64,000 nt of DNA. It comes from a virus. Taxonomy: Duplodnaviria; Heunggongvirae; Uroviricota; Caudoviricetes. A program made the translations under genes and the position numbers. The DNA is taken from the IMG/VR virus record IMGVR_UViG_3300005831_000057; one strand, written 5' to 3'. How positions within the stretch are numbered: position 1 is the stretch's first letter; each line of letters opens with the position of its first letter. Below are positions 6,514 through 48,511 of this stretch, in pieces. Below the pieces are notes generated by a model. The model did no database searches. It was not told where the DNA came from and worked only from the letters and a program-made list of their open reading frames with translations.

Positions 6514-9500
6514 TGGCTATTTATAACTTTTTGGAAGGATTATTAATAAAGAAAAATGGAGCGTTCGGAAGGCTTAGACTTAGTCAAGAAGAAATACTAT
6601 TATCCAAGAATACATATCTATTAACTCCTAGTAAAATATATCTGTGTAAACCCAATAGAAAGCCTATATGCGTCTTAAATGGAGTTGATATAAATAGTGT
6701 ACAAACAAGCGTTAGACTACAAGATATATGCAAACTATCGTTTTCTGTTGATAAATATATAACAATAGGTGATTCTGAAATTGTAAGTGATGGATATGAT
6801 ATACTTCATGCTTATATGGAAGTTTATGTTGAGAATATTGGATATTTTAAAATACAAGAGCCGTCAATAATGATAGAAGATGGAAGAGAATATAAAACTG
6901 TAAGCGGAGAGTCTGTAGATAAAGAGCTTATAGACAAAGATTTGATTGGGCTATCTATAAATATGGGAACAGAAGATTCGCTAGAAATGTTAGTTGATGG
7001 CAACGTTAGTAATGCTGGATTTAGAATAGAGCCTATTACATTTTATAATGAATTCAGACCAGAGTTGTCGCTTCTTGATATAGTAATGGAAAAGATTTCT
7101 GGATGGAGTATAGCGTTCGTAGACGAAAGTTTAAAGAATAGAGTATTTAATTTTGAAATAGATTCTAAAAATATATATGCATTTTTAACACAAGATGTTT
7201 CTGGTTCTGCTGAATGTATATTCTTCTTTAACACAATAGACAAAACTATAAGTGTTTATGCCAAAGAAAATATAGGCGAAGATACTGGAATATTTATATC
7301 ACAAGAAAACCTAATGAATACTGTTGACATAAATTGCGACTCTGATAGCATATATACGAGACTTAATGTTAGAGGAGAAGGCGAATTAAATTTATCAGCT
7401 GTTAACTTTGGTGACTTAAGGATATTTAATAGAGATTATTTTATGACTACAGACTATGTGTCTCAAGATATAATAGATAAGCATACTTATTGGAAAAATT
7501 ACAGAGAACTACAAAGATCATTGTATATACAAAAATTCAAAGATTATACTACACAATCTGAAATAGTGGACGAAATAACATATCGTGTACCCAATGATGG
7601 ATGTAATACTTACCAGTGGAATCAGTTAACTCAACTTGAACTAAATGCTAATCTAGTATATTACCAAGCCGAACTTACTACAATGCAAATATCAGTAGAC
7701 ACTACGCCACAATATACCACAGATGGTAATTATATAGCATGGACTCTTAATGGAAGCATAAATCATCAAGCATATATGAATTTATTGTTATCTCAAAACA
7801 AAGGATATTACACATATTACGAAATACTTAATTATATAATGCCAAATATAGAATTAGCGATTGGTAATTATGGTTTATCAGAAGAAAACAAAACGCCTTA
7901 TGTGGAAGATTGGGATACTAACTTTGACTTATATGGAACTGTGGAATTATCGACAAAAAGGGAAGCTTACAAAGAACAACTAATGATACTTTCAAATGTG
8001 GTAATCTTAGATGTGAATAGATCTCCCATATATTTCGCATCATTAACGGCTTCACAGAAATCACAAAATGGTATTAACGAGTCTACGTATGACAACTATT
8101 GCAACACTTACGCTAGTACAAAATTGAATCTTGACAATTGTGAGATATCGCTAGAAGAAAGACAAATAGAACTTAATGATGCTACGGATTTGATGAATAC
8201 ATATATATCTGATTTAGAGAATATGCGAAATGACGTTGATATTTCTAATGTACAATTTGGATTTACTACTGACGAATTAAACACAATTAATATTTTAAAT
8301 ATAGATACAGATTACGCAAATGATAATATATTGGTAACAGAAACTAATACGAGTATTGAAGCTATAGATGTCGCAAATGATTTATATCTTGACGCTACTG
8401 AAAAGTTAATATCACTATCTCAGCCACAATATAATTTTTCTACCACAATAGATAATTTATACAACATGATAGAATTTTATGATTGGAAAATAGATTTCAA
8501 AGTTGGTAATTTTATAAGAGTAGCTATAAGAGATGGTTATGTAGTAAAGTTTAGGCTTTCAGACATTACATTTAATCCTTGTGATGCAGAAAGCGAATTA
8601 TCGGTAACATATACAAATATGGTAAGATCTAAAAATGGGCTTAATGATTTTACGACTTTATTTGATTCTACAATATCAGCACAGAAAAACAGTATATCTT
8701 ATGCGTCAACTAAAGCTACTGGACAAATAGAATTGACTGCTGAATTGCTACAGAAAATATCAAATTCAAGTCAGATATCAAGCAAGATTTCTAATAGTCA
8801 AAGCGCCACATCTACAGATACAGAGCTCAAAACTAGCACAGTTGTAGGCGACGTTATTGGAGCTAGAAAAGTGGACGCTGAAATAATGACTGTTACAAAA
8901 GCCAATGTTAATGAATTATTTTCTGGAGACATAACATTTACTGGAACTATAACTGGTGGATCTTATGATGGCGGAGTTGACAATGGAGTTATAAAAAGTT
9001 TGAATTATGTTCCTAATACAAGCGGAACTAGATTGGACTTGGTTAATGGAAGTTTCGAAACTAGTAGTGCATTACTTCGTGGAGATATTTATGCTGACAA
9101 TGGATACATTGGTGGAGTAGATGGATTTACAATAGATACTAACGCAATCAGAAATGGGAAAACGACGTTCGCTGACTACGTAAATCAAGGTGTGTATATT
9201 TCTACTTCTGGAATTAGTATAGGTGATGCATTGGGTGGATGGATAGGAATAGATATAGACGGAACTATGGAGTTAAGAAGATATAATGAACTAGGTGTGT
9301 TACTTTCTTCTAATCGAGTAGAACCAGATTTAATAAATATCTATACAGATGATACATATTTTACAACCATATCAGATGGGTTAGTTTTATGTAGCGGAGA
9401 TATTTTGGCTAATTACAATCCTACTACTACAAATGGTATATCATTAGCTACGATAGGTTACGATTCTGGGTGGATTGCTCCTACGATATTAGCATCATTT

Positions 9501-20837: not shown

Positions 20838-21821
20838 TCAATCCTCCTTTAAACATCTTTTTATTTCAATAGCTATCCCTTTTATTACAGGTACGCATAC
20901 AGAGTTTCCTGCTTGTTTATACAATCTAGCATCACTCATATCATCTGGTAAAACATAATATTCAGGAAATCCTTGTGCATTAAAACATTCTCTTGGTGTC
21001 ATTTTTCTAATACCATGCTTAGTCTTTATTAAGCAAACGTTATGTCCGCCTTCCCCTTGATTTGCCGTAAGAGTTGGCACAACTCCTGATCGATTTTTTC
21101 TTACATACTTCCTTCTCCACTGATATATTGCTGGATTTTCTGGTTCATCATTTTTCATCCCATCCACTAAAGCATCGTATATTTCGCCTTTATACTTACC
21201 TAATGTATAATAATACTTTTCGTCAACCTTGTTATTAAAATCGATAATATCTTTTACTGTAGTTGTCAAATGGGTAGCAAGCGGCCAATGAAATTTTTCA
21301 TAATCTTCTTCATCTCTAAATGCCACAATGTAAATTCTTTCTCTGTTCTGTGCTATGTTTCCATAATTCATCGCATTTAATACTTGATAAGTGTATTTAT
21401 ATCCAAGTATATCTAGTTGTTCACAAATCACTCTGAATGTATTTCCGTTATCATGTCCAACAAGATTTTTTACATTTTCAAAAAAAGCAAATCTTGGTTT
21501 CTTATCCTCTAGTATGCGTGTTAATTCAAAAAACAGCTCTCCACGCCCTTTTTCATCTTCAAATCCTTTTCTGTATCCCGCAATAGAAAAAGACTGACAT
21601 GGAAATCCAGCTAGCATAATATCAAAATCAGGTATTTCTTCACTTTTTACATCGCATATATCTCTCATGTCTACTTTTATATCAAAATTAAGTTCAAATG
21701 TCTTTGTTGGGTATAGATCGATTTCATTTGCATAAATAGTTTTAAAAATTTCTGCGCTTTCAAATCCACAGTCGATACCTCCTACGCCAGCAAAAAAAGA
21801 TGCACACCTTAACATAATCAA
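20838..21821 (-). CDS. DNA (cytosine-5)-methyltransferase
   Basis: FAGVGG (motif I), GFPCQ (IV), ENV (VI), GNSV (X). Confidence 0.85.
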   Translation of the reverse strand: MIMLRCASFFAGVGGIDCGFESAEIFKTIYANEIDLYPTKTFELNFDIKVDMRDICDVKSEEIPDFDIMLAGFPCQSFSIAGYRKGFEDEKGRGELFFELTRILEDKKPRFAFFENVKNLVGHDNGNTFRVICEQLDILGYKYTYQVLNAMNYGNIAQNRERIYIVAFRDEEDYEKFHWPLATHLTTTVKDIIDFNNKVDEKYYYTLGKYKGEIYDALVDGMKNDEPENPAIYQWRRKYVRKNRSGVVPTLTANQGEGGHNVCLIKTKHGIRKMTPRECFNAQGFPEYYVLPDDMSDARLYKQAGNSVCVPVIKGIAIEIKRCLKED

Positions 21822-28806: not shown

Positions 28807-29888
28807 ACTTTCACTCCTTTGTTATTTTTTATATTTCCAACTACAATTCTTTCGTTTACCGACATTGTAAAATCTCTTATTTTCTTATAGTCGGGCTTAT
28901 CTGACAACTCTGTGTTTTTCTTTGCGTATTCTAACTTTTGTTCGTAATCTGCTATTATGTCGAAGAATTCTGTCACAACTTGCTTATTATCGTCTAAATA
29001 TTTACCATTTCTTATATCCATTAATAGATCATGCTCAGCGTCTCTATAAGTTACTATCTTTTGTTTCTCAAGTATATCTAAGCACATAATATATAATCTT
29101 AATAGGTGGCACATATGCTTTCCAAGTTTATCATGTTTCGCAGCGTTTTCGTTACGCTTACCTAAAACTCCATATTCTTTTACAATCGACTGCATTTCTG
29201 ACATCATCGACTTATAATCTCTTAATGGATAATTCTTAAAGTTTACATCCATAAAAATTTCAGTATCATATTCTTCTTGTGCTGACTCGCCAATATACAA
29301 ATTGATATTATCATCATCGTTGCTAAAATACCTATCTTTAAAATAATATTTGGCATTATTCAGTGTATTTAATATATGCTGCTCTCTTTCAGAATGAGAT
29401 ACGTCACGTTTAGATTTGTTAGTAAGTCGTCTAAGCTGTTGATTGGCATATCCTCCAAATGAATGAATTGCTAGTTTTGATAAGAATAAATCGCTATTAT
29501 CTAAAAGTTCTTGTCCAATATCGCTAACATGTAAATAATGTTCTTTGTTACATCCTAGAATTTCAATAGTGTTTGGATTGCAATTGGTTAAAAGTGTGAT
29601 TATTTTGTTAAATGAATAAATTGTAGTGTCAGTTTCGTTGTTAATAAATTGGTTAAAGTTACTATTTGTCAAGATATCTTCTTTTGAGTTTAAAGCAATT
29701 CCTCTTACATCTAGGTCACTGTCTTCGTTGTTAGTGCCATAAGCATAACTTCCACCAAGTGTTAGTAATATTATATTATCTTTTAATCTTGGTTCATCTC
29801 TAAGAAAGCTATATTTATCCGAATTTACTAACTGTTTGATTTCTTCTAAATTCATGACTCGCTCCTTTCTAAAACACATATTAACCAT
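28803..29888 (-). CDS. Pol-beta-superfamily nucleotidyltransferase (GS...DxD) with a helical C-terminal domain
   Basis: LGGSYAYGTNNEDSDLDVRG matches the minimal NTase G[GS]x(9-13)DxD signature. The true start may be the internal MNLEEI. Confidence 0.55.
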   Translation of the reverse strand: MVNMCFRKERVMNLEEIKQLVNSDKYSFLRDEPRLKDNIILLTLGGSYAYGTNNEDSDLDVRGIALNSKEDILTNSNFNQFINNETDTTIYSFNKIITLLTNCNPNTIEILGCNKEHYLHVSDIGQELLDNSDLFLSKLAIHSFGGYANQQLRRLTNKSKRDVSHSEREQHILNTLNNAKYYFKDRYFSNDDDNINLYIGESAQEEYDTEIFMDVNFKNYPLRDYKSMMSEMQSIVKEYGVLGKRNENAAKHDKLGKHMCHLLRLYIMCLDILEKQKIVTYRDAEHDLLMDIRNGKYLDDNKQVVTEFFDIIADYEQKLEYAKKNTELSDKPDYKKIRDFTMSVNERIVVGNIKNNKGVKV

Positions 29889-30636
29889 TATTCCAAACTT
29901 CTATTTTAGTGTCTATACACGCAATGTGATTATTAATTCTTTTATTTGATATGTTGTAATAATTCCTATCTAGTTCGAATCCTATGTATTGTCTATTAGT
30001 ATTTATACATGCTATAGCGGTACTCCCGCCCCCTATGCAATTATCCATCACAACTTCGCCGTCGTTTGTATACGTTTTAATTAGGTATTCTAATAGAGCT
30101 ACTGGTTTTTGTGTTGGATGTACCGTATTTTTATCACGCTTAAATTCTATAACCGACAAAGGATATCTTTCACCTTCACTTTTTGAAATATGTCCACCGC
30201 AGCTTTTATCGTAATTATAACTCTCGCTTCCGCTTCCTTGTTTGCAAATATACGGTTTAAATCCCAATCTCATTTGTGGGTTATATGTAGGAGTTTTCTT
30301 GTAAAATACTAATATATTCTCATGATTTTTTAGTGGCATCTTTTTAGCGTTAAGAAATCCAGTTCCATTCTCTTTTTGCCATATCCATTCATACTTTAGG
30401 TTTTTTATGTTGCTACATCCCAATACTTTGTCAAATGGAGATTGTGCAAATAGTACGATAGCTCCATCGTCTTTTATTACTCTATTATAAGCGTTCCACA
30501 ACTCTTGTAAATCGATAACAGTATCCCACTTGTTTCTAGTAGTTCCATATGGCAAATCACATAAAATCATATCAATTGATTTGTCATTTAATTTTTTCAT
30601 TCCTTCTATGCAATCTTCATTATATATTTCATTCAT
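29881..30636 (-). CDS. Beta-class DNA methyltransferase (N6-adenine or N4-cytosine)
   Basis: Motif IV ILCDLPYG near the N-terminus and motif I DNCIGGGSTAIAC near the C-terminus, the permuted beta-class order. Confidence 0.8.
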   Translation of the reverse strand: MNEIYNEDCIEGMKKLNDKSIDMILCDLPYGTTRNKWDTVIDLQELWNAYNRVIKDDGAIVLFAQSPFDKVLGCSNIKNLKYEWIWQKENGTGFLNAKKMPLKNHENILVFYKKTPTYNPQMRLGFKPYICKQGSGSESYNYDKSCGGHISKSEGERYPLSVIEFKRDKNTVHPTQKPVALLEYLIKTYTNDGEVVMDNCIGGGSTAIACINTNRQYIGFELDRNYYNISNKRINNHIACIDTKIEVWNNG

Positions 30637-40038: not shown

Positions 40039-41238
40039 TTATTCATTGTCAAAAATACATTCTAGCACTTTAGCCATTCTTGTAATCATCGGAACTACTA
40101 ATGCATTCCCCATGCAAAAATATCTCATTCTCTCCGTCATTCCAGTATTTGTCCAGTTATCGTCAAATCCATTTAGACGTTCAGATTCTAACGGCGTAAT
40201 TACTCTTAGTTTATTAGTGCTATTACACATTACTACGTGCGAACTTCTGTTGCAAGTACTTTCGCTAGTTAGCATAGTCCTACTAGGTCTGTCTAAGAAA
40301 TCTGGAAATGGCACTGCTCCTTCGGAATATATGTATTCATGACCAGTCTTCGAAATTCTATTTATCTTTTTAGAATTTTTAAGATATTCCCACTTAGATA
40401 TATTCTGTCCTAAGTAATACTTTTCGTCAACAACTTTTTCTAATACATCGCAAAGATTTATAGTGGTTTCTCTTTTTTCTAATACTTTAACTGTGTATAT
40501 TTCCCCGTCGCTCATATATCCCGCATTCTCAAATTCAAACATATAGTTGTCAGATACATTTTGTATATAATTATATTCTACAGTTGAATATTTTAATACC
40601 TCGCATTCACTTATTGGAAATGCTTTGCAAAAAAAACCATCCTTTGTAATTATATCTAACTTATCATCAATGTTCATCCTTTGTTTAAATTTAGTACTTG
40701 TTTTGTATGCAAATATAAATACTCTTCTCCTTCTTTGCGCTGCCCCATACGACGCTGCGTTTACAACTCGCCATTCTACGTCATATCCGAGTTTGGCAAA
40801 GCACGATAGTATTATTCCAAAATCCCTACCTCTTTGCGTTGAAGGTGATTTTAAAAGCCTATCTACATTTTCAAGCAATACAAACGGAGGACTTTTAGCT
40901 AATAATACATCCATTATAGACCACCATAGTACTCCTTTTTTACCTTTAATTCCTTCTTGACCATTCAAGCATCTGGCAACTGAATAATCTTGACATGGAA
41001 ATCCTCCTACTAATAAATTATGATTTGGAATATTTTCTTTATTTACTTCGTTTATATCTATATTTGTAAATTGATCAATATACCCATAATGTTTTAGATA
41101 ACAGTCGTGCGCCCACTGATTTTTTTTATTAGGTTCGTATTGATTAAACCACACAGTATCCCAGTCTTTATTTTGTCTTTCTAGTCCCAATCGAAATCCA
41201 CCCACACCAGCAAACAACTCGCAAACGGTCTTTTCCAT
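40039..41238 (-). CDS. DNA (cytosine-5)-methyltransferase (second copy)
   Basis: FAGVGG, GGFPCQDYS, ENV and QRRRRVF motifs. Confidence 0.85.
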   Translation of the reverse strand: MEKTVCELFAGVGGFRLGLERQNKDWDTVWFNQYEPNKKNQWAHDCYLKHYGYIDQFTNIDINEVNKENIPNHNLLVGGFPCQDYSVARCLNGQEGIKGKKGVLWWSIMDVLLAKSPPFVLLENVDRLLKSPSTQRGRDFGIILSCFAKLGYDVEWRVVNAASYGAAQRRRRVFIFAYKTSTKFKQRMNIDDKLDIITKDGFFCKAFPISECEVLKYSTVEYNYIQNVSDNYMFEFENAGYMSDGEIYTVKVLEKRETTINLCDVLEKVVDEKYYLGQNISKWEYLKNSKKINRISKTGHEYIYSEGAVPFPDFLDRPSRTMLTSESTCNRSSHVVMCNSTNKLRVITPLESERLNGFDDNWTNTGMTERMRYFCMGNALVVPMITRMAKVLECIFDNE

Positions 41239-43393: not shown

Positions 43394-44347
43394 TTATTTG
43401 TCTTTAATTATTGCACTTACGCCTTGAACAGTAACTTTGCTACCGTTCCATTTTTCTATTTCTTTATATTTAACAAGATTATCATTAATTGATGCTGAAA
43501 TCTTCTTGTTGGCAGTAGCTTCTGCACTAGATTTAATAATTACTGCATCTGCATCGGCTTTTGCTTTTGATAAAATCTGTTTATTCTTGTTTTGCTGCGT
43601 AATAATATTCTGTTCGGATGAAAACTTTTGGTTAATTGACTTCTGAATAGACGCATCTTGATAAGTTAATCCATTTTTCATACCTAAAACTGTAATGGTA
43701 ATTCCACGTCCACTAAAATAATCCACTACATCTTTTCTTACACTGTCCATAATAACACTTTTGTTTGCTAGCACATTATTTAACGTGTATTTTGCACACT
43801 CTTCGACAAATTTAGACTCTACTCTTGCCCTAATTTCAGTATCCATAATATTTGCTAACGTCTTATTATTGTATCTATATAAGAATTTTGTAGCATTAAA
43901 CTCGTCAATTTGAGCAGAACAGTTCATTCCGACACTGAAACCGATTGATTCTTTTGATTCAGCCATAATTACTTGATTTTTTGGGGTAGTTCCAGTCTTG
44001 CTATCGGATGTCCACTCTCTTGTTTCTGGCTTTCTTTCCACGATAACTAATTTTACTGTTGCACGATAATACCCAGAGTCTTCAAATCTTCCAGTTTGAA
44101 CCCATCTTTTAGAAATCGTGATCTCTTTTGATGCGACTTTTGCACTATTTAACGCTTCTTCTGACTTAAAAACTTCTTGATCAACTACATCTCCAGTCAA
44201 TGGAATCAAAAATGCCGTCTGCGAAGCCTCTATTGTTTTAATTTCTGGCTTATTATATGGTCTGCATCCCATAAACGAGCATGATACTAATACAAATAAT
44301 ACAACTAAAATACTTCTTCTAATTCTTACGCTTGGTTTAATTTTCAT
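43394..44347 (-). CDS. SPFH/band-7 (prohibitin-like) domain lipoprotein
   Basis: Lipobox LVSCSF. The central region resembles a band-7 domain and is followed by an Ala/Lys-rich coiled coil. Confidence 0.45.
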   Translation of the reverse strand: MKIKPSVRIRRSILVVLFVLVSCSFMGCRPYNKPEIKTIEASQTAFLIPLTGDVVDQEVFKSEEALNSAKVASKEITISKRWVQTGRFEDSGYYRATVKLVIVERKPETREWTSDSKTGTTPKNQVIMAESKESIGFSVGMNCSAQIDEFNATKFLYRYNNKTLANIMDTEIRARVESKFVEECAKYTLNNVLANKSVIMDSVRKDVVDYFSGRGITITVLGMKNGLTYQDASIQKSINQKFSSEQNIITQQNKNKQILSKAKADADAVIIKSSAEATANKKISASINDNLVKYKEIEKWNGSKVTVQGVSAIIKDK

Positions 44348-46639: not shown

Positions 46640-46752
46640 TCGACACAGTAGGGCTCGAACCTACGACATATAGTTTTCTTTTTTATTGCTGTATAAATAT
46701 TTTACAATATTTTAAATTTTGCTATCGCTCTCCCAGCTGAGCTATGTGTCGA
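46640..46752 (-). ncRNA. tRNA-like ncRNA with a ~50-nt expansion replacing the anticodon arm; candidate Y-RNA-like (YrlA-type) RNA
   Basis: On the minus strand: a perfect 7-bp acceptor stem (CGACACA/TGTGTCG), a D-arm GCTCAGCTGGGAGAGC and a T-arm GTAGGTTCGAGCCCTAC. ~50 nt of AT-rich insert with an AAATATT-GTAA-AATATTT hairpin lies between the D- and T-arms. No CCA is encoded. Confidence 0.5.
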
Positions 46753-46880: not shown

Positions 46881-46909
46881 ATTATATCATACTTATTTTT
46901 GCTTGTCAA
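46881..46909 (-). promoter_or_regulatory. Perfect-consensus sigma-A promoter (minus strand): TTGACA-N17-TATAAT with an A-tract UP element
   Basis: Reverse complement reads AAAAAAAGTGTTGACAagcaaaaataagtatgaTATAAT. Confidence 0.6.
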
Positions 46910-46960: not shown

Positions 46961-46989
46961 ATTATATCATGTATATTTCAAGATGTCAA
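46961..46989 (-). promoter_or_regulatory. Second perfect-consensus sigma-A promoter in tandem (minus strand)
   Basis: Reverse complement reads AAAAAAAGTATTGACAtcttgaaatatacatgaTATAAT. Confidence 0.6.
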
Positions 46990-46997
46990 TACTTTTT

Positions 46998-47720
46998 TTA
47001 AATTATTACTAAGTTATTTATATAATCTCTATTCTTTGTGAATATTGGTATTTCGTTATCGATCACCCATTCGCCAAGTCCGTTTCTTATGGCGCAAGAT
47101 CCTCTTTTGAAACTAGTCTCGACATTATTCCAATTAATATCCTTCTCCATCAACATATCTTGTACCTCCGACGTATTCTTAAATTGTAAAGACTTGTGAG
47201 AAAATACCGACTGAGCCAATCCATTTATACTATTCCTTGTGGCATCTTGCTGTCGCCAAACTAAGCAGTTAGCAGCGTCTCCTTTTGGTATGTTGAAAAC
47301 TCTTGAGTCAAATGTAGCACTCTTAAGTTTTTCATATTTATCTATATTGCAACCGTCTATTCTACTACATATACTCTTATTAAATTCCAAAGTAGCAATA
47401 GAAGCTGAAACGCTTACCATCTTTTGGATATTATTACTAAACCAAGGCTGAGTTTCAAGTCTAAAATAATCCACTATCAATAGCGTTATTTCGTCAGACT
47501 GTGTATACCCAAGCACGCAACCTTGTATTTTCTTGCACAATTGTAGCATCGTATCTTGCATCGCACCAGATAAAACTGTGTCGTATGGACGATCTATTCC
47601 TTTGGCTAAAGTGTGAAACGCACAGCCGTCAAGTCTTATAATGACTGGAGTTCGTCTCATTAATTCTCCATTACTAACTCTTTCATAAGCCTTCATTCTA
47701 TCTCCTAGCGAATCTACCAT
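46998..47720 (-). CDS. Thg1-like protein (tRNA-His guanylyltransferase family 3'-5' polymerase, TLP)
   Basis: KAYERV, VIIRLDGCAFHTL, GYTQSDEITLL, VWRQQDATRNSINGL and the C-terminal block align with the Thg1/TLP hallmarks (KFEYVR, VVVRLDGRNFHRF, AYGQSDEYSF, SWRQADCHINNL). Confidence 0.85.
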   Translation of the reverse strand: MVDSLGDRMKAYERVSNGELMRRTPVIIRLDGCAFHTLAKGIDRPYDTVLSGAMQDTMLQLCKKIQGCVLGYTQSDEITLLIVDYFRLETQPWFSNNIQKMVSVSASIATLEFNKSICSRIDGCNIDKYEKLKSATFDSRVFNIPKGDAANCLVWRQQDATRNSINGLAQSVFSHKSLQFKNTSEVQDMLMEKDINWNNVETSFKRGSCAIRNGLGEWVIDNEIPIFTKNRDYINNLVII

Positions 47721-47731
47721 AAACTCACCTC

Positions 47732-48511
47732 CTATAATATTATTGCGTCAAGTCCTATATTTACACTGTCGAACGCATTTCTCTTCTCTTCTTTAGTTAT
47801 TCCAATATATTCAAGCGTAATAGAGCTAGAACTGTGCCCTAAAATACTCTGCAATACAGATAACATTTTTCCTTTATCTTCTGACGTATCATATCTAAAT
47901 CTGCAAAAACTACGTCTTAGGCTATGTGTGCCAACATCGTACCTTACACATGCGAAGTCTGATGCATCCTTTATGCTCTTGTAAAAAGCAGGATAATTCA
48001 TATGTCCGCCTCTAGCACCTTCAAATACATAATCTTCATGATTTACATATTTTATATTCTTGCCAACAGACTTAAGATAATTACTTATTGCCATTCTAAA
48101 TCCTTCATTAAAAGACAAAAAAACATGCTTGTCATATCTACTTGTTTTTTCTGGCTTAATCGTTTTGCCATCTTTGAAATTATTATTATCGTCTAGTATA
48201 TCGCCAAACTTAATAGACAATAAGTCATTTATTCTAAGCCCGAGATTTATATTGCATAAGAATATTGCCTTTTGGCATCTATAAGAATCTCTATATCTAT
48301 ACTGCGATTCAGTTATCATTTTGTCATAATATGCTACAAACTTATTTACATCTTCTAGCCTAATATATTCGCCTTTATCTTCACGATTACTTTTGGCGTT
48401 AGACTTCGTTTGTTTTGGAAGTCCATCTTTTCTTAATTTTGCTACTTTACCGCCGTCTATAACTTCTAACGGCTTACTTGTTTCAAAAGAATAAATTCTT
48501 GCAGTATTCAT
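47732..48511 (-). CDS. Tyrosine recombinase / integrase family protein
   Basis: R (GLRINDLL), HSLRRSF (HxxR) and LGHSSSSITLEYIG (catalytic Tyr) motifs. Confidence 0.7.
   Translation of the reverse strand: MNTARIYSFETSKPLEVIDGGKVAKLRKDGLPKQTKSNAKSNREDKGEYIRLEDVNKFVAYYDKMITESQYRYRDSYRCQKAIFLCNINLGLRINDLLSIKFGDILDDNNNFKDGKTIKPEKTSRYDKHVFLSFNEGFRMAISNYLKSVGKNIKYVNHEDYVFEGARGGHMNYPAFYKSIKDASDFACVRYDVGTHSLRRSFCRFRYDTSEDKGKMLSVLQSILGHSSSSITLEYIGITKEEKRNAFDSVNIGLDAIIL

Follow-up and report, generated by a model that had tools for sequence, protein, structure and literature searches.

The 64,000-nucleotide (nt) stretch of IMG/VR virus record IMGVR_UViG_3300005831_000057 (Caudoviricetes) analyzed here, referred to below as the window, carries at positions 46998..47720 a gene for a Thg1-like 3'-5' nucleotidyltransferase (Thg1-like protein, TLP) with an intact active site, an identity confirmed by profile, database, and residue-level comparisons. 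The gene product is predicted to be an active TLP of the bacterial type, and the gene heads a Ro60-like ribonucleoprotein (RNP) locus made up of two promoters, five RNAs with a helix-NN-ACAGCAA module, a Ro60-like gene, and a sixth copy of the module (Table 1). On balance, this TLP probably repairs the 5' ends of tRNAs, its putative substrates, as an accessory part of the phage's toolkit for RNA repair.

Several comparisons, with scores that put chance similarity out of the question, converge on the Thg1/TLP assignment. The Pfam profile Thg1 (PF04446) matched the protein with E=3.1e-29 and 101.9 bits (cut-off 29.2) over profile positions 2-130 of 130, PHROG 4717 ("tRNA-His guanylyltransferase") matched with E=1.2e-85, and PDB entry 4KGK, the TLP of Bacillus thuringiensis (BtTLP), aligned to residues 2-238 with E=2.6e-59 (approximately 50% alignable, full length). 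This identity had been proposed in a first-pass annotation, made from the letters and a list of open reading frames (ORFs), on the strength of four motifs (KAYERV, IIRLDGCAFH, GYTQSDEITL, and WRQQDA), all of which are found in ORF 46998..47720. Neither of the observations named there as fatal to the proposal, a loss of the catalytic acidic residues or the lack of a profile match, was made: the metal-binding carboxylates D31, D76, and E77 are kept, in alignment with D30, D75, and E76 of BtTLP and with D29, D76, and E77 of human THG1, and PF04446 scored above its cut-off. The second profile suggested there behaved differently, as Thg1C (PF14413) reached only 15 bits (E=0.03), under its cut-off of 26.3. 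Despite this weak score, residues 146-238 align continuously to the C-terminal half of BtTLP.

Beyond the carboxylates, the protein shares with BtTLP (4KGK/4KGM) the residues assigned to activation (K40, S75, and N163) and to nucleotidyl transfer (R29, K100, and R140, plus E13), the roles of which were described for BtTLP and human THG1 (K43/S74/N158; R27/K95/R130; BtTLP E12; PMC3701042). In an alignment with 25 metagenomic homologs, all catalytic residues were invariant, with the sole exception of position 40, which is either K or R.

The same comparisons place the protein within the family. Human and Candida Thg1 matched at only E ~1e-4, against E=2.6e-59 for BtTLP, and the position of the Thg1 anticodon-recognition segment HINNLYN (WRQADCHINNLYN) reads TRNSINGLAQ (WRQQDATRNSINGLAQ) in the window protein. 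Since it is closest to BtTLP and lacks a HINNLYN-type segment, the protein is a bacterial-type TLP and not of the eukaryotic Thg1 type. The known activity of bacterial-type TLPs is the templated repair of 5'-truncated tRNA. With BtTLP, the window protein shares its size (240 vs. 245 amino acids, aa), an end-to-end alignment, and a TLP-type C-terminal region without the anticodon-reading motif. It differs in being phage-encoded and known here from sequence alone, in an 8-residue insertion around positions 118-125, and in its setting, a phage RNA-repair and Ro-like locus rather than a bacterial chromosome. Eukaryotic Thg1 (human THG1, PDB 3OTB; yeast) has in common with it the palm-like catalytic domain and two-metal chemistry; besides the distant sequence and the anticodon-recognition segment, the two differ in that Thg1 performs non-templated G-1 addition, whereas templated repair would be expected of the window TLP.

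TLP genes are widespread in phages. Homologs were detected by tblastn in 164 GenBank phage records, most of them annotated as tRNA-His guanylyltransferase, from phages that include Bacillus, Prevotella Lak, Caulobacter, Mycobacterium, Fusobacterium, and Xanthomonas phages, and approximately 8000 metagenomic proteins match at E<=1e-20, with 50-60% identity across the family. Attention was drawn to the TLP gene of Bacillus phage Bc431v3 in 2013 (PMC3601020), and a jumbo-phage survey in 2021 placed phage Thg1 among RNA-repair functions by comparative genomics (PMC7824862), so that such genes of large phages were on record as unusual ones for tRNA modification or repair. Given these records, the existence of a PHROG family, and the two papers, a phage TLP is not new, and the novelty implied by the first-pass annotation was overstated. 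No biochemical study of a phage TLP was found in the literature searched. The phage members of PHROG 4717 (e.g., Bc431v3 gp143 and those of Goe8, Fusobacterium phage Fnu1, and Xanthomonas phage XacN1) are 46-52% identical to the window protein over the full length. The window TLP gene directly precedes a Ro-like/Y-like RNA locus, whereas the TLP genes of Fnu1 and of the Bacillus phages do not adjoin a Ro-like gene. At the DNA level, no close relative of the window phage was found in GenBank, where there were only two short matches, and no synteny was found with Fusobacterium phages phiKSUM and Fnu1.

Immediately downstream of the TLP gene lies an array of small RNA elements. The 64 kb window contains five perfect TTGACA-N17-TATAAT sites, all on the minus strand (at 46989, 46909, 31237, 28125, and 18872), and two of these stand in tandem before the array. 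Four elements (R1-R4) are copies of a ~50-nt repeat that occurs nowhere else in the window, with closing stems that covary between copies (for example AAGGUAC/GUAUCUU vs. AAGAUGU/GCAUCUU). Because a scan for a closing stem followed by the motif is unspecific in this AT-rich genome, with shuffled sequences giving approximately 5 matches per 64 kb, the case for R1-R4 rests on their mutual similarity, on the covariation of their stems, and on a parallel in Listeria phage P100 (see below).

The fifth RNA is tRNA-shaped and lies 250 nt downstream of the TLP gene. A tRNA-like RNA at this place had been anticipated by the first-pass annotation, and it indeed exists (46751..46640 on the minus strand; Rfam tRNA, 46.4 bits), although default ARAGORN misses it and it was found only by the Rfam tRNA model or by ARAGORN in intron mode. 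Its 7-bp acceptor stem is completely base-paired in the encoded sequence, its D and T arms are canonical, and its discriminator is A73; CCA is not encoded. Approximately 48 nt replace the anticodon loop, with AAAGAAA, without U33, at the equivalent positions. The RNA runs in the order acceptor 5' strand, D arm, hairpin, NN, ACAGCAA, linker, T arm, and acceptor 3' strand, and represents a full cloverleaf that carries a conserved module and stands behind two consensus promoters. Two more conventional identities were rejected for this element: it lacks the anticodon loop of a functional tRNA (7 nt, with U33 and purine 37), and its insert does not qualify as a tRNA intron, as excision leaves no canonical anticodon loop. 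The helix-NN-ACAGCAA module is common to six elements, namely R1-R4, the tRNA-like RNA, and the sixth module behind the Ro-like gene, and no Rfam 15 family other than tRNA matches any of the six.

While tying the tRNA-like RNA to the TLP, the first-pass annotation overlooked the adjacent Ro60-like gene, to whose Y RNA-like locus this RNA belongs. As judged from its structural model, the DUF2828/DUF7788 product of this gene is Ro60-like by fold, not by sequence. The best PDB matches of the AlphaFold model (mean predicted local distance difference test score, 76) were all Ro60 proteins, aligned over approximately 500 columns with E=2e-9 to 4e-4 (Foldseek): Ro60 of Thermus phage phiLo (E=2e-9), Xenopus and human Ro60, and Rsr of Deinococcus radiodurans. 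The MIDAS motif D298-G-S-G-S302 is invariant in the alignment, and PHROG 850 ("RNA-binding protein") matches the product with E=6.5e-128. At the sequence level, no PDB match was found and Pfam TROVE gave no match even at E<=10, the only Pfam matches being DUF2828, DUF7788, and a weak VWA_2. Homologs are present in 711 GenBank phage records, among them those of P100/A511 and Felix O1-like phages, and SEA-PHAGES annotators name them "Ro-like RNA binding protein". A preprint describes gp130 of the Felix O1-like phage Bas63 as Ro60-like, located beside tRNA genes, and countering the ppl defence system.

The RNA module recurs with this protein family, in gut phages as well as in phages of Listeria, E. 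coli, Bacillus, Campylobacter, and Mycobacterium. An alignment query retrieved 80 viral-contig loci encoding DUF2828 homologs (a single-protein query had given one locus), and 74 of these contain one to five insert-bearing tRNA-like RNAs at most 1.8 kb upstream of the gene and on the same strand, as detected by ARAGORN in intron mode; such RNAs are rare elsewhere in the flanks of these loci. ACAGCAA, in some cases with one base changed, is found in 130 of the 136 unique tRNA-like RNAs that precede DUF2828 genes, all collected with ARAGORN, which does not search for this motif. A perfect stem of at least 7 bp ending 0-4 nt before the motif was found in 42 of 62 representatives, compared to approximately 10% of shuffled controls. 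Across 46 copies in the 7-4-7-2 register, all seven hairpin pairs are changed on both sides, and the hairpin covariation score is 0.90, against 0.27 in shuffles and <0.2 with the partner slid; these 46 rows had been chosen for having at least 6 of 7 pairs, which biases the percentage paired and leaves the variety of pairs unaffected.

The closing-stem arrangement of R1-R4 is also found beside Ro-like genes in cultivated phages: three times upstream of Ro-like gene gp165 in Listeria phage P100, four times in a tRNA array downstream of the Ro-like gene in Escherichia phage EC6, three times downstream of it in Mycobacterium phage Bromden, and next to it in Bacillus phage FADO and Campylobacter phage F365, the module sites including L164:3100-3400, L165:4200-4900, and L166:3950-4260. 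In P100, we additionally observed, upstream of gp165 and among tRNA genes, a match to ROOL RNA (L164:1959-2510) that falls short of the gathering score of 99.1 (86 bits, E=5e-16). The second Bromden copy encloses a T arm and then a D arm, i.e., the permuted tRNA-like domain described for YrlA, for which the GNCGAA motif has also been reported (PMC4201824). Opened at its acceptor loop and closed at its terminal stem, the Bromden structure yields exactly the arrangement of the window RNA, and the helix-NN-ACAGCAA module occurs in two circularly permuted topologies.

Other relatives retain more of a tRNA. A canonical anticodon stem-loop (U33, purine 37) lies 3' of the insert in 28 of 64 representatives (e.g., L034:4266-4383, L004:4577-4694, L016:3491-3616, and L081:4365-4494), with GUU as the commonest anticodon, alongside UUU, GGG, GCU, and GUC. 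In these 28, the insert interrupts the anticodon stem on its 5' strand, usually behind position 28, and covariation is seen in the split stem. These relatives with a surviving anticodon loop may represent intron-like tRNA genes, anticodon-nuclease decoys, or scaffolds.

Taken together, the helix-NN-ACAGCAA RNAs appear to be putative Y RNAs of DUF2828-type Ro-like proteins, which would bind them; no description of this RNA module was found in the literature searched. The locus resembles both the bacterial Ro60 (Rsr)-YrlA-RtcB operon and the phiRo60 gene of phage phiLo with its Yrl1/Yrl2 RNAs, in that a Ro60-fold gene is flanked by small structured RNAs on the same strand, at least one of which has a tRNA-like domain, and in that an RNA ligase is linked, here in relatives of the window. 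It differs from them in a protein of the DUF2828/DUF7788 type and not Pfam TROVE, in a helix-NN-ACAGCAA motif where YrlA has a GNCGAA-type one, and in a tRNA-shaped RNA whose acceptor ends are free and whose anticodon arm contains the module, which makes it a circular permutation of the YrlA form. Moreover, the locus is accompanied by a TLP and not by RtcA.

Elsewhere in the window, the 5'-kinase, 3'-phosphatase, and RNA ligase reported by the first-pass annotation were all recovered, as a kinase-HD protein, a metallophosphoesterase, and an Rnl1-type ligase, and a RlaP-family nucleotidyltransferase was found in addition. The kinase domain resembles that of bacterial Pnkp, and the HD domain that of CCA-adding enzymes. 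The metallophosphoesterase, a candidate enzyme for healing 2',3'-phosphate ends, has its match in the bacterial Pnkp phosphatase domain (TIGR04075 positions 185-324). This set recalls the repair of PrrC-cleaved tRNA-Lys by Pnkp and Rnl1 of phage T4, with which it shares an Rnl1-family ligase together with predicted kinase and phosphoesterase activities. Unlike in T4, the kinase and phosphatase are located on separate proteins of the bacterial-Pnkp/HD type, and the nucleotide-restoring RlaP and TLP, both present in the window, are absent from the T4 system.

Table 1 Positions of the TLP gene, the adjoining RNP locus, and the RNA-repair genes in the window
Feature	Position	Strand	Basis or remarks
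Thg1-like protein (TLP) gene, 240 aa, ATG start	46998..47720	-	ORF; Pfam Thg1; 4KGK; PHROG 4717; catalytic residues
AGGAGG ribosome-binding site of the TLP gene	47728..47733	-	Read from sequence; 7 nt upstream of start
Promoter P1, TTGACA-N17-TATAAT with extended -10 TG	46961..46989	-	12/12 match
Promoter P2, TTGACA-N17-TATAAT with extended -10 TG, directly before the RNA array	46881..46909	-	Perfect match
R1: 7-bp closing stem AAGGUAC/GUAUCUU, AC, GCAGCAA, A-rich loop	46819..46871	-	Repeat family
R2: closing stem UAGAUGU/GCAUCUA, AA, GCAGCAA, loop	46759..46809	-	Repeat family
tRNA-shaped RNA, 112 nt, native tRNA topology, between R2 and R3	46640..46751	-	Rfam tRNA, 46.4 bits (gathering 29)
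Module inside the tRNA-shaped RNA: hairpin AAAUAUU-GUAA-AAUAUUU, AU, ACAGCAA	46686..46712	-	
R3: closing stem AAGAUGU/GCAUCUU, UA, ACAGCAA, loop	46588..46637	-	Repeat family
R4: closing stem UAGGUAC/GUAUCUA, AC, GCAGCAA, loop	46512..46562	-	Repeat family
Ro60-like protein (TROVE-like helical ring and vWA/MIDAS), 501 aa	44968..46473	-	Pfam DUF2828, DUF7788; AlphaFold/Foldseek
Sixth module: hairpin GAAUCUU-GUAU-AGGAUUC, UA, ACAGCAA, directly after the Ro-like stop codon	44933..44959	-	
Tyrosine recombinase (Xer/integrase-like), 259 aa	47732..48511	-	Pfam Phage_integrase E=4.6e-12; NCBIfam Xer-like
RlaP-family (RNA ligase-associated Pol-beta) nucleotidyltransferase, 361 aa	28803..29888	-	Pfam RlaP E=3.5e-17; PHROG 388
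T4 Rnl1-family RNA ligase, 425 aa	21818..23095	-	Pfam RNA_lig_T4_1 E=2e-24; PHROG 562; TIGR02308 below cut-off
P-loop polynucleotide-kinase-like domain and HD phosphohydrolase domain, 315 aa	19909..20856	-	Pfam AAA_33, HD; PHROG 505 "polynucleotide kinase"
Calcineurin-like metallophosphoesterase, 213 aa	19251..19892	-	Pfam Metallophos E=1.3e-18

Neighborhoods in other phages establish that phage TLPs travel with RNA-repair genes. An RNA-repair gene is the immediate neighbor in 8 of the 80 closest TLP loci, as a kinase-HD gene (L086, L088, and L090), a metallophosphoesterase gene (L088, L090, L108, and L111), or a RlaP gene (L114, L119, and L148). Approached from the other side, 19 of the 80 Ro-like loci have a TLP gene approximately 1.3 kb downstream of the Ro-like gene, and these fall into two lineages, typified by L007 (11 loci) and L029 (8 loci). 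Both lineages encode, between the Ro-like gene and the TLP, an RNA ligase with PF09414 and an N-terminal PHA02142 OB domain (L007:6839-7822 and L029:6733-7860). The operon thus runs from the tRNA-like RNAs through the Ro-like gene and the RNA ligase to the TLP, an order that recalls the bacterial rsr-Y RNA-rtcB operon as well as P100, in which the Ro-like gene is followed by genes for an HD phosphohydrolase and an RtcB ligase. The linkage of TLP and Ro-like genes is looser in L147 and L149, and in Bacillus phages PK-3 and FADO a long distance separates the two genes.

Members of the TLP family activate a 5'-monophosphate with ATP or GTP and then, working in the 3'-to-5' direction, add one missing nucleotide after another, with Watson-Crick templating by the 3' strand of the acceptor stem, until the stem has reached its full length. 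Within the toolkit proposed for this phage, 5'-phosphates would come from the Pnkp-like kinase, and 2',3'-phosphates would be removed by the HD and metallophosphoesterase proteins; 3' nucleotides would be put back by RlaP, and breaks would be joined by Rnl1. Acting together, these enzymes may keep tRNAs, and possibly the tRNA-shaped Y-like RNAs of the phage, usable under attack by host nucleases. TLPs recognize the acceptor stem and elbow of their substrates independently of the anticodon (PMC4820378). With its canonical elbow and 7-bp acceptor stem, the RNA adjacent to the TLP gene therefore presents the known recognition determinants, and since the anticodon is not read, this tRNA-shaped RNA is a possible substrate if its 5' end is damaged. 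The first-pass suggestion of tRNA end healing against host nucleases accordingly agrees with comparative genomics (PMC7824862) and with the neighborhoods of relatives, and the role as such is one that we infer.

A number of observations weigh against a role in tRNA repair. The window contains no standard tRNA gene detectable by default ARAGORN, and a distance of 24 kb separates the TLP gene from the cassette of ligase, kinase, and phosphatase genes. Cleavage by the well-known host anticodon nucleases falls within the anticodon loop, where a TLP could not mend the damage, and we know of no phage-defence nuclease shown to trim tRNA 5' ends. A Ro-like gene is found near the TLP in only 2 of the 80 closest TLP loci, and most phages with a Ro-like gene (Felixounavirus, Listeria, and Staphylococcus phages) appear from organism lists to be without a TLP; the tie to the Ro-like RNP is therefore facultative, if recurrent. 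Finally, the TLP gene is frameshifted or internally deleted in three of the eight near-identical L029-type relatives (L028, L032, and L044, around 7956-8860), and a protein database holds a 154-aa version of the window TLP (P0001) that ends just before W155, a position at which the window has an intact TGG codon within an intact ORF. These disruptions and the short record indicate that the gene is dispensable under some conditions, a pattern of loss that fits an accessory gene of only conditional use.

The disruptions in three of eight close relatives and the truncated record would also be expected if the gene were a decaying or non-functional passenger, and the relaxed substrate requirements of TLPs in vitro would allow action on a non-tRNA substrate, such as the 5' ends of other RNAs or of DNA. 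We regard either possibility as very improbable: the window ORF is intact and follows a strong ribosome-binding site, none of its catalytic or nucleotide-binding residues is lost, and the family is conserved across thousands of metagenomic proteins. Only slightly better placed, and still improbable, is the classical Thg1 function, i.e., G-1 addition to tRNA-His, for example to that of the phage if G-1 is missing from its gene, or to that of the host after G-1 has been lost. GenBank annotators have named phage homologs accordingly, but neither tRNA-His nor any other standard tRNA was found in the 64 kb window, bacterial G-1 is genome-encoded and retained by RNase P, and the protein is of the TLP type, closest to BtTLP, whose main activity is 5'-end repair. 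All fetched loci together contain only two tRNA-His genes, too few to judge whether G-1 is encoded.

An alternative closer to the locus itself is that the TLP is specific to the tRNA-shaped Y-like RNAs within the Ro60-like RNP, where its task would be the maturation or upkeep of their 5' ends following RNase P processing or damage by nucleases, with the RNP acting as a decoy, sensor, or repair platform. The TLP gene directly adjoins this RNA locus in the window, the tRNA-shaped RNA offers the acceptor stem and elbow that TLPs recognize, and tRNA-like RNAs, Ro-like gene, RNA ligase, and TLP form an operon in two other lineages (more loosely in L147 and L149), with parallels in the bacterial rsr-Y RNA-rtcB operon and in the P100 set of Ro-like protein, HD protein, and RtcB. 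We nonetheless consider this specialization unlikely, as the acceptor stem of the window RNA is already fully paired and requires no editing, R1-R4 and the sixth module lack the tRNA body to which a TLP would bind, and most Ro-like loci lack a TLP just as most TLP loci lack a Ro-like gene. A broader and equally tentative proposal, to which we would give only a small chance of being correct, is that the TLP would be part of an undescribed phage RNP in which the Ro60-like DUF2828 protein binds a new class of helix-NN-ACAGCAA Y RNAs, some of them with complete tRNA bodies in native topology, and in which the TLP, together with an RNA ligase in sister phages, restores the 5' ends of bait or scaffold RNAs, or of captured tRNAs, after attack by host nucleases. 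Accessory tRNA 5'-end repair thus remains the role that we favor for the window TLP.

Several further features surround these genes. The TLP gene is probably co-transcribed with the Xer-like recombinase gene directly upstream, whose TAG stop codon shares bases with the Shine-Dalgarno sequence AGGAGG of the TLP; no homolog of this recombinase was found in the 80 TLP loci. This tyrosine recombinase is short (259 aa), and its presence is unusual for a phage of ~113 kb with a large replication module. The phage origin of the window is evident from genes for a tape measure protein, a minor tail protein, and endolysins, and a Pol III alpha-type polymerase, DnaB, a primase, and NrdD are also encoded. 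Two C5-cytosine DNA methylases (20838..21821 and 40039..41238) and one N6/N4 methylase (29881..30636), all on the minus strand, were observed, one C5 methylase being inserted between the Rnl1 ligase and kinase-HD genes and the N6/N4 methylase abutting RlaP. An SPFH/Band-7 (prohibitin-like) gene lies a few kb from the TLP gene (43394..44347, minus strand), and such a gene is likewise found near the TLP in Fusobacterium phage Fnu1 (L002:7398-8207) and in a metagenomic locus (L086:11770-12645), a recurrence that could be synteny or a weak association.

For bacterial-type TLPs, structures and in vitro repair activity are available and a physiological role is not, and phage repair cassettes such as the one described here offer concrete candidate substrates and partners. 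We consider the Ro-like/Y-like RNA context the most valuable result in this respect, as it provides a candidate partner or substrate of the TLP that is open to test; if the TLP does belong to an undescribed RNP, this would provide the first physiological substrate for bacterial-type TLPs. The helix-NN-ACAGCAA RNAs, in turn, appear to be a widespread partner of DUF2828 proteins outside Rfam, and defining the RNA partner of Bas63 gp130 would make the mechanism of its anti-defence activity testable.

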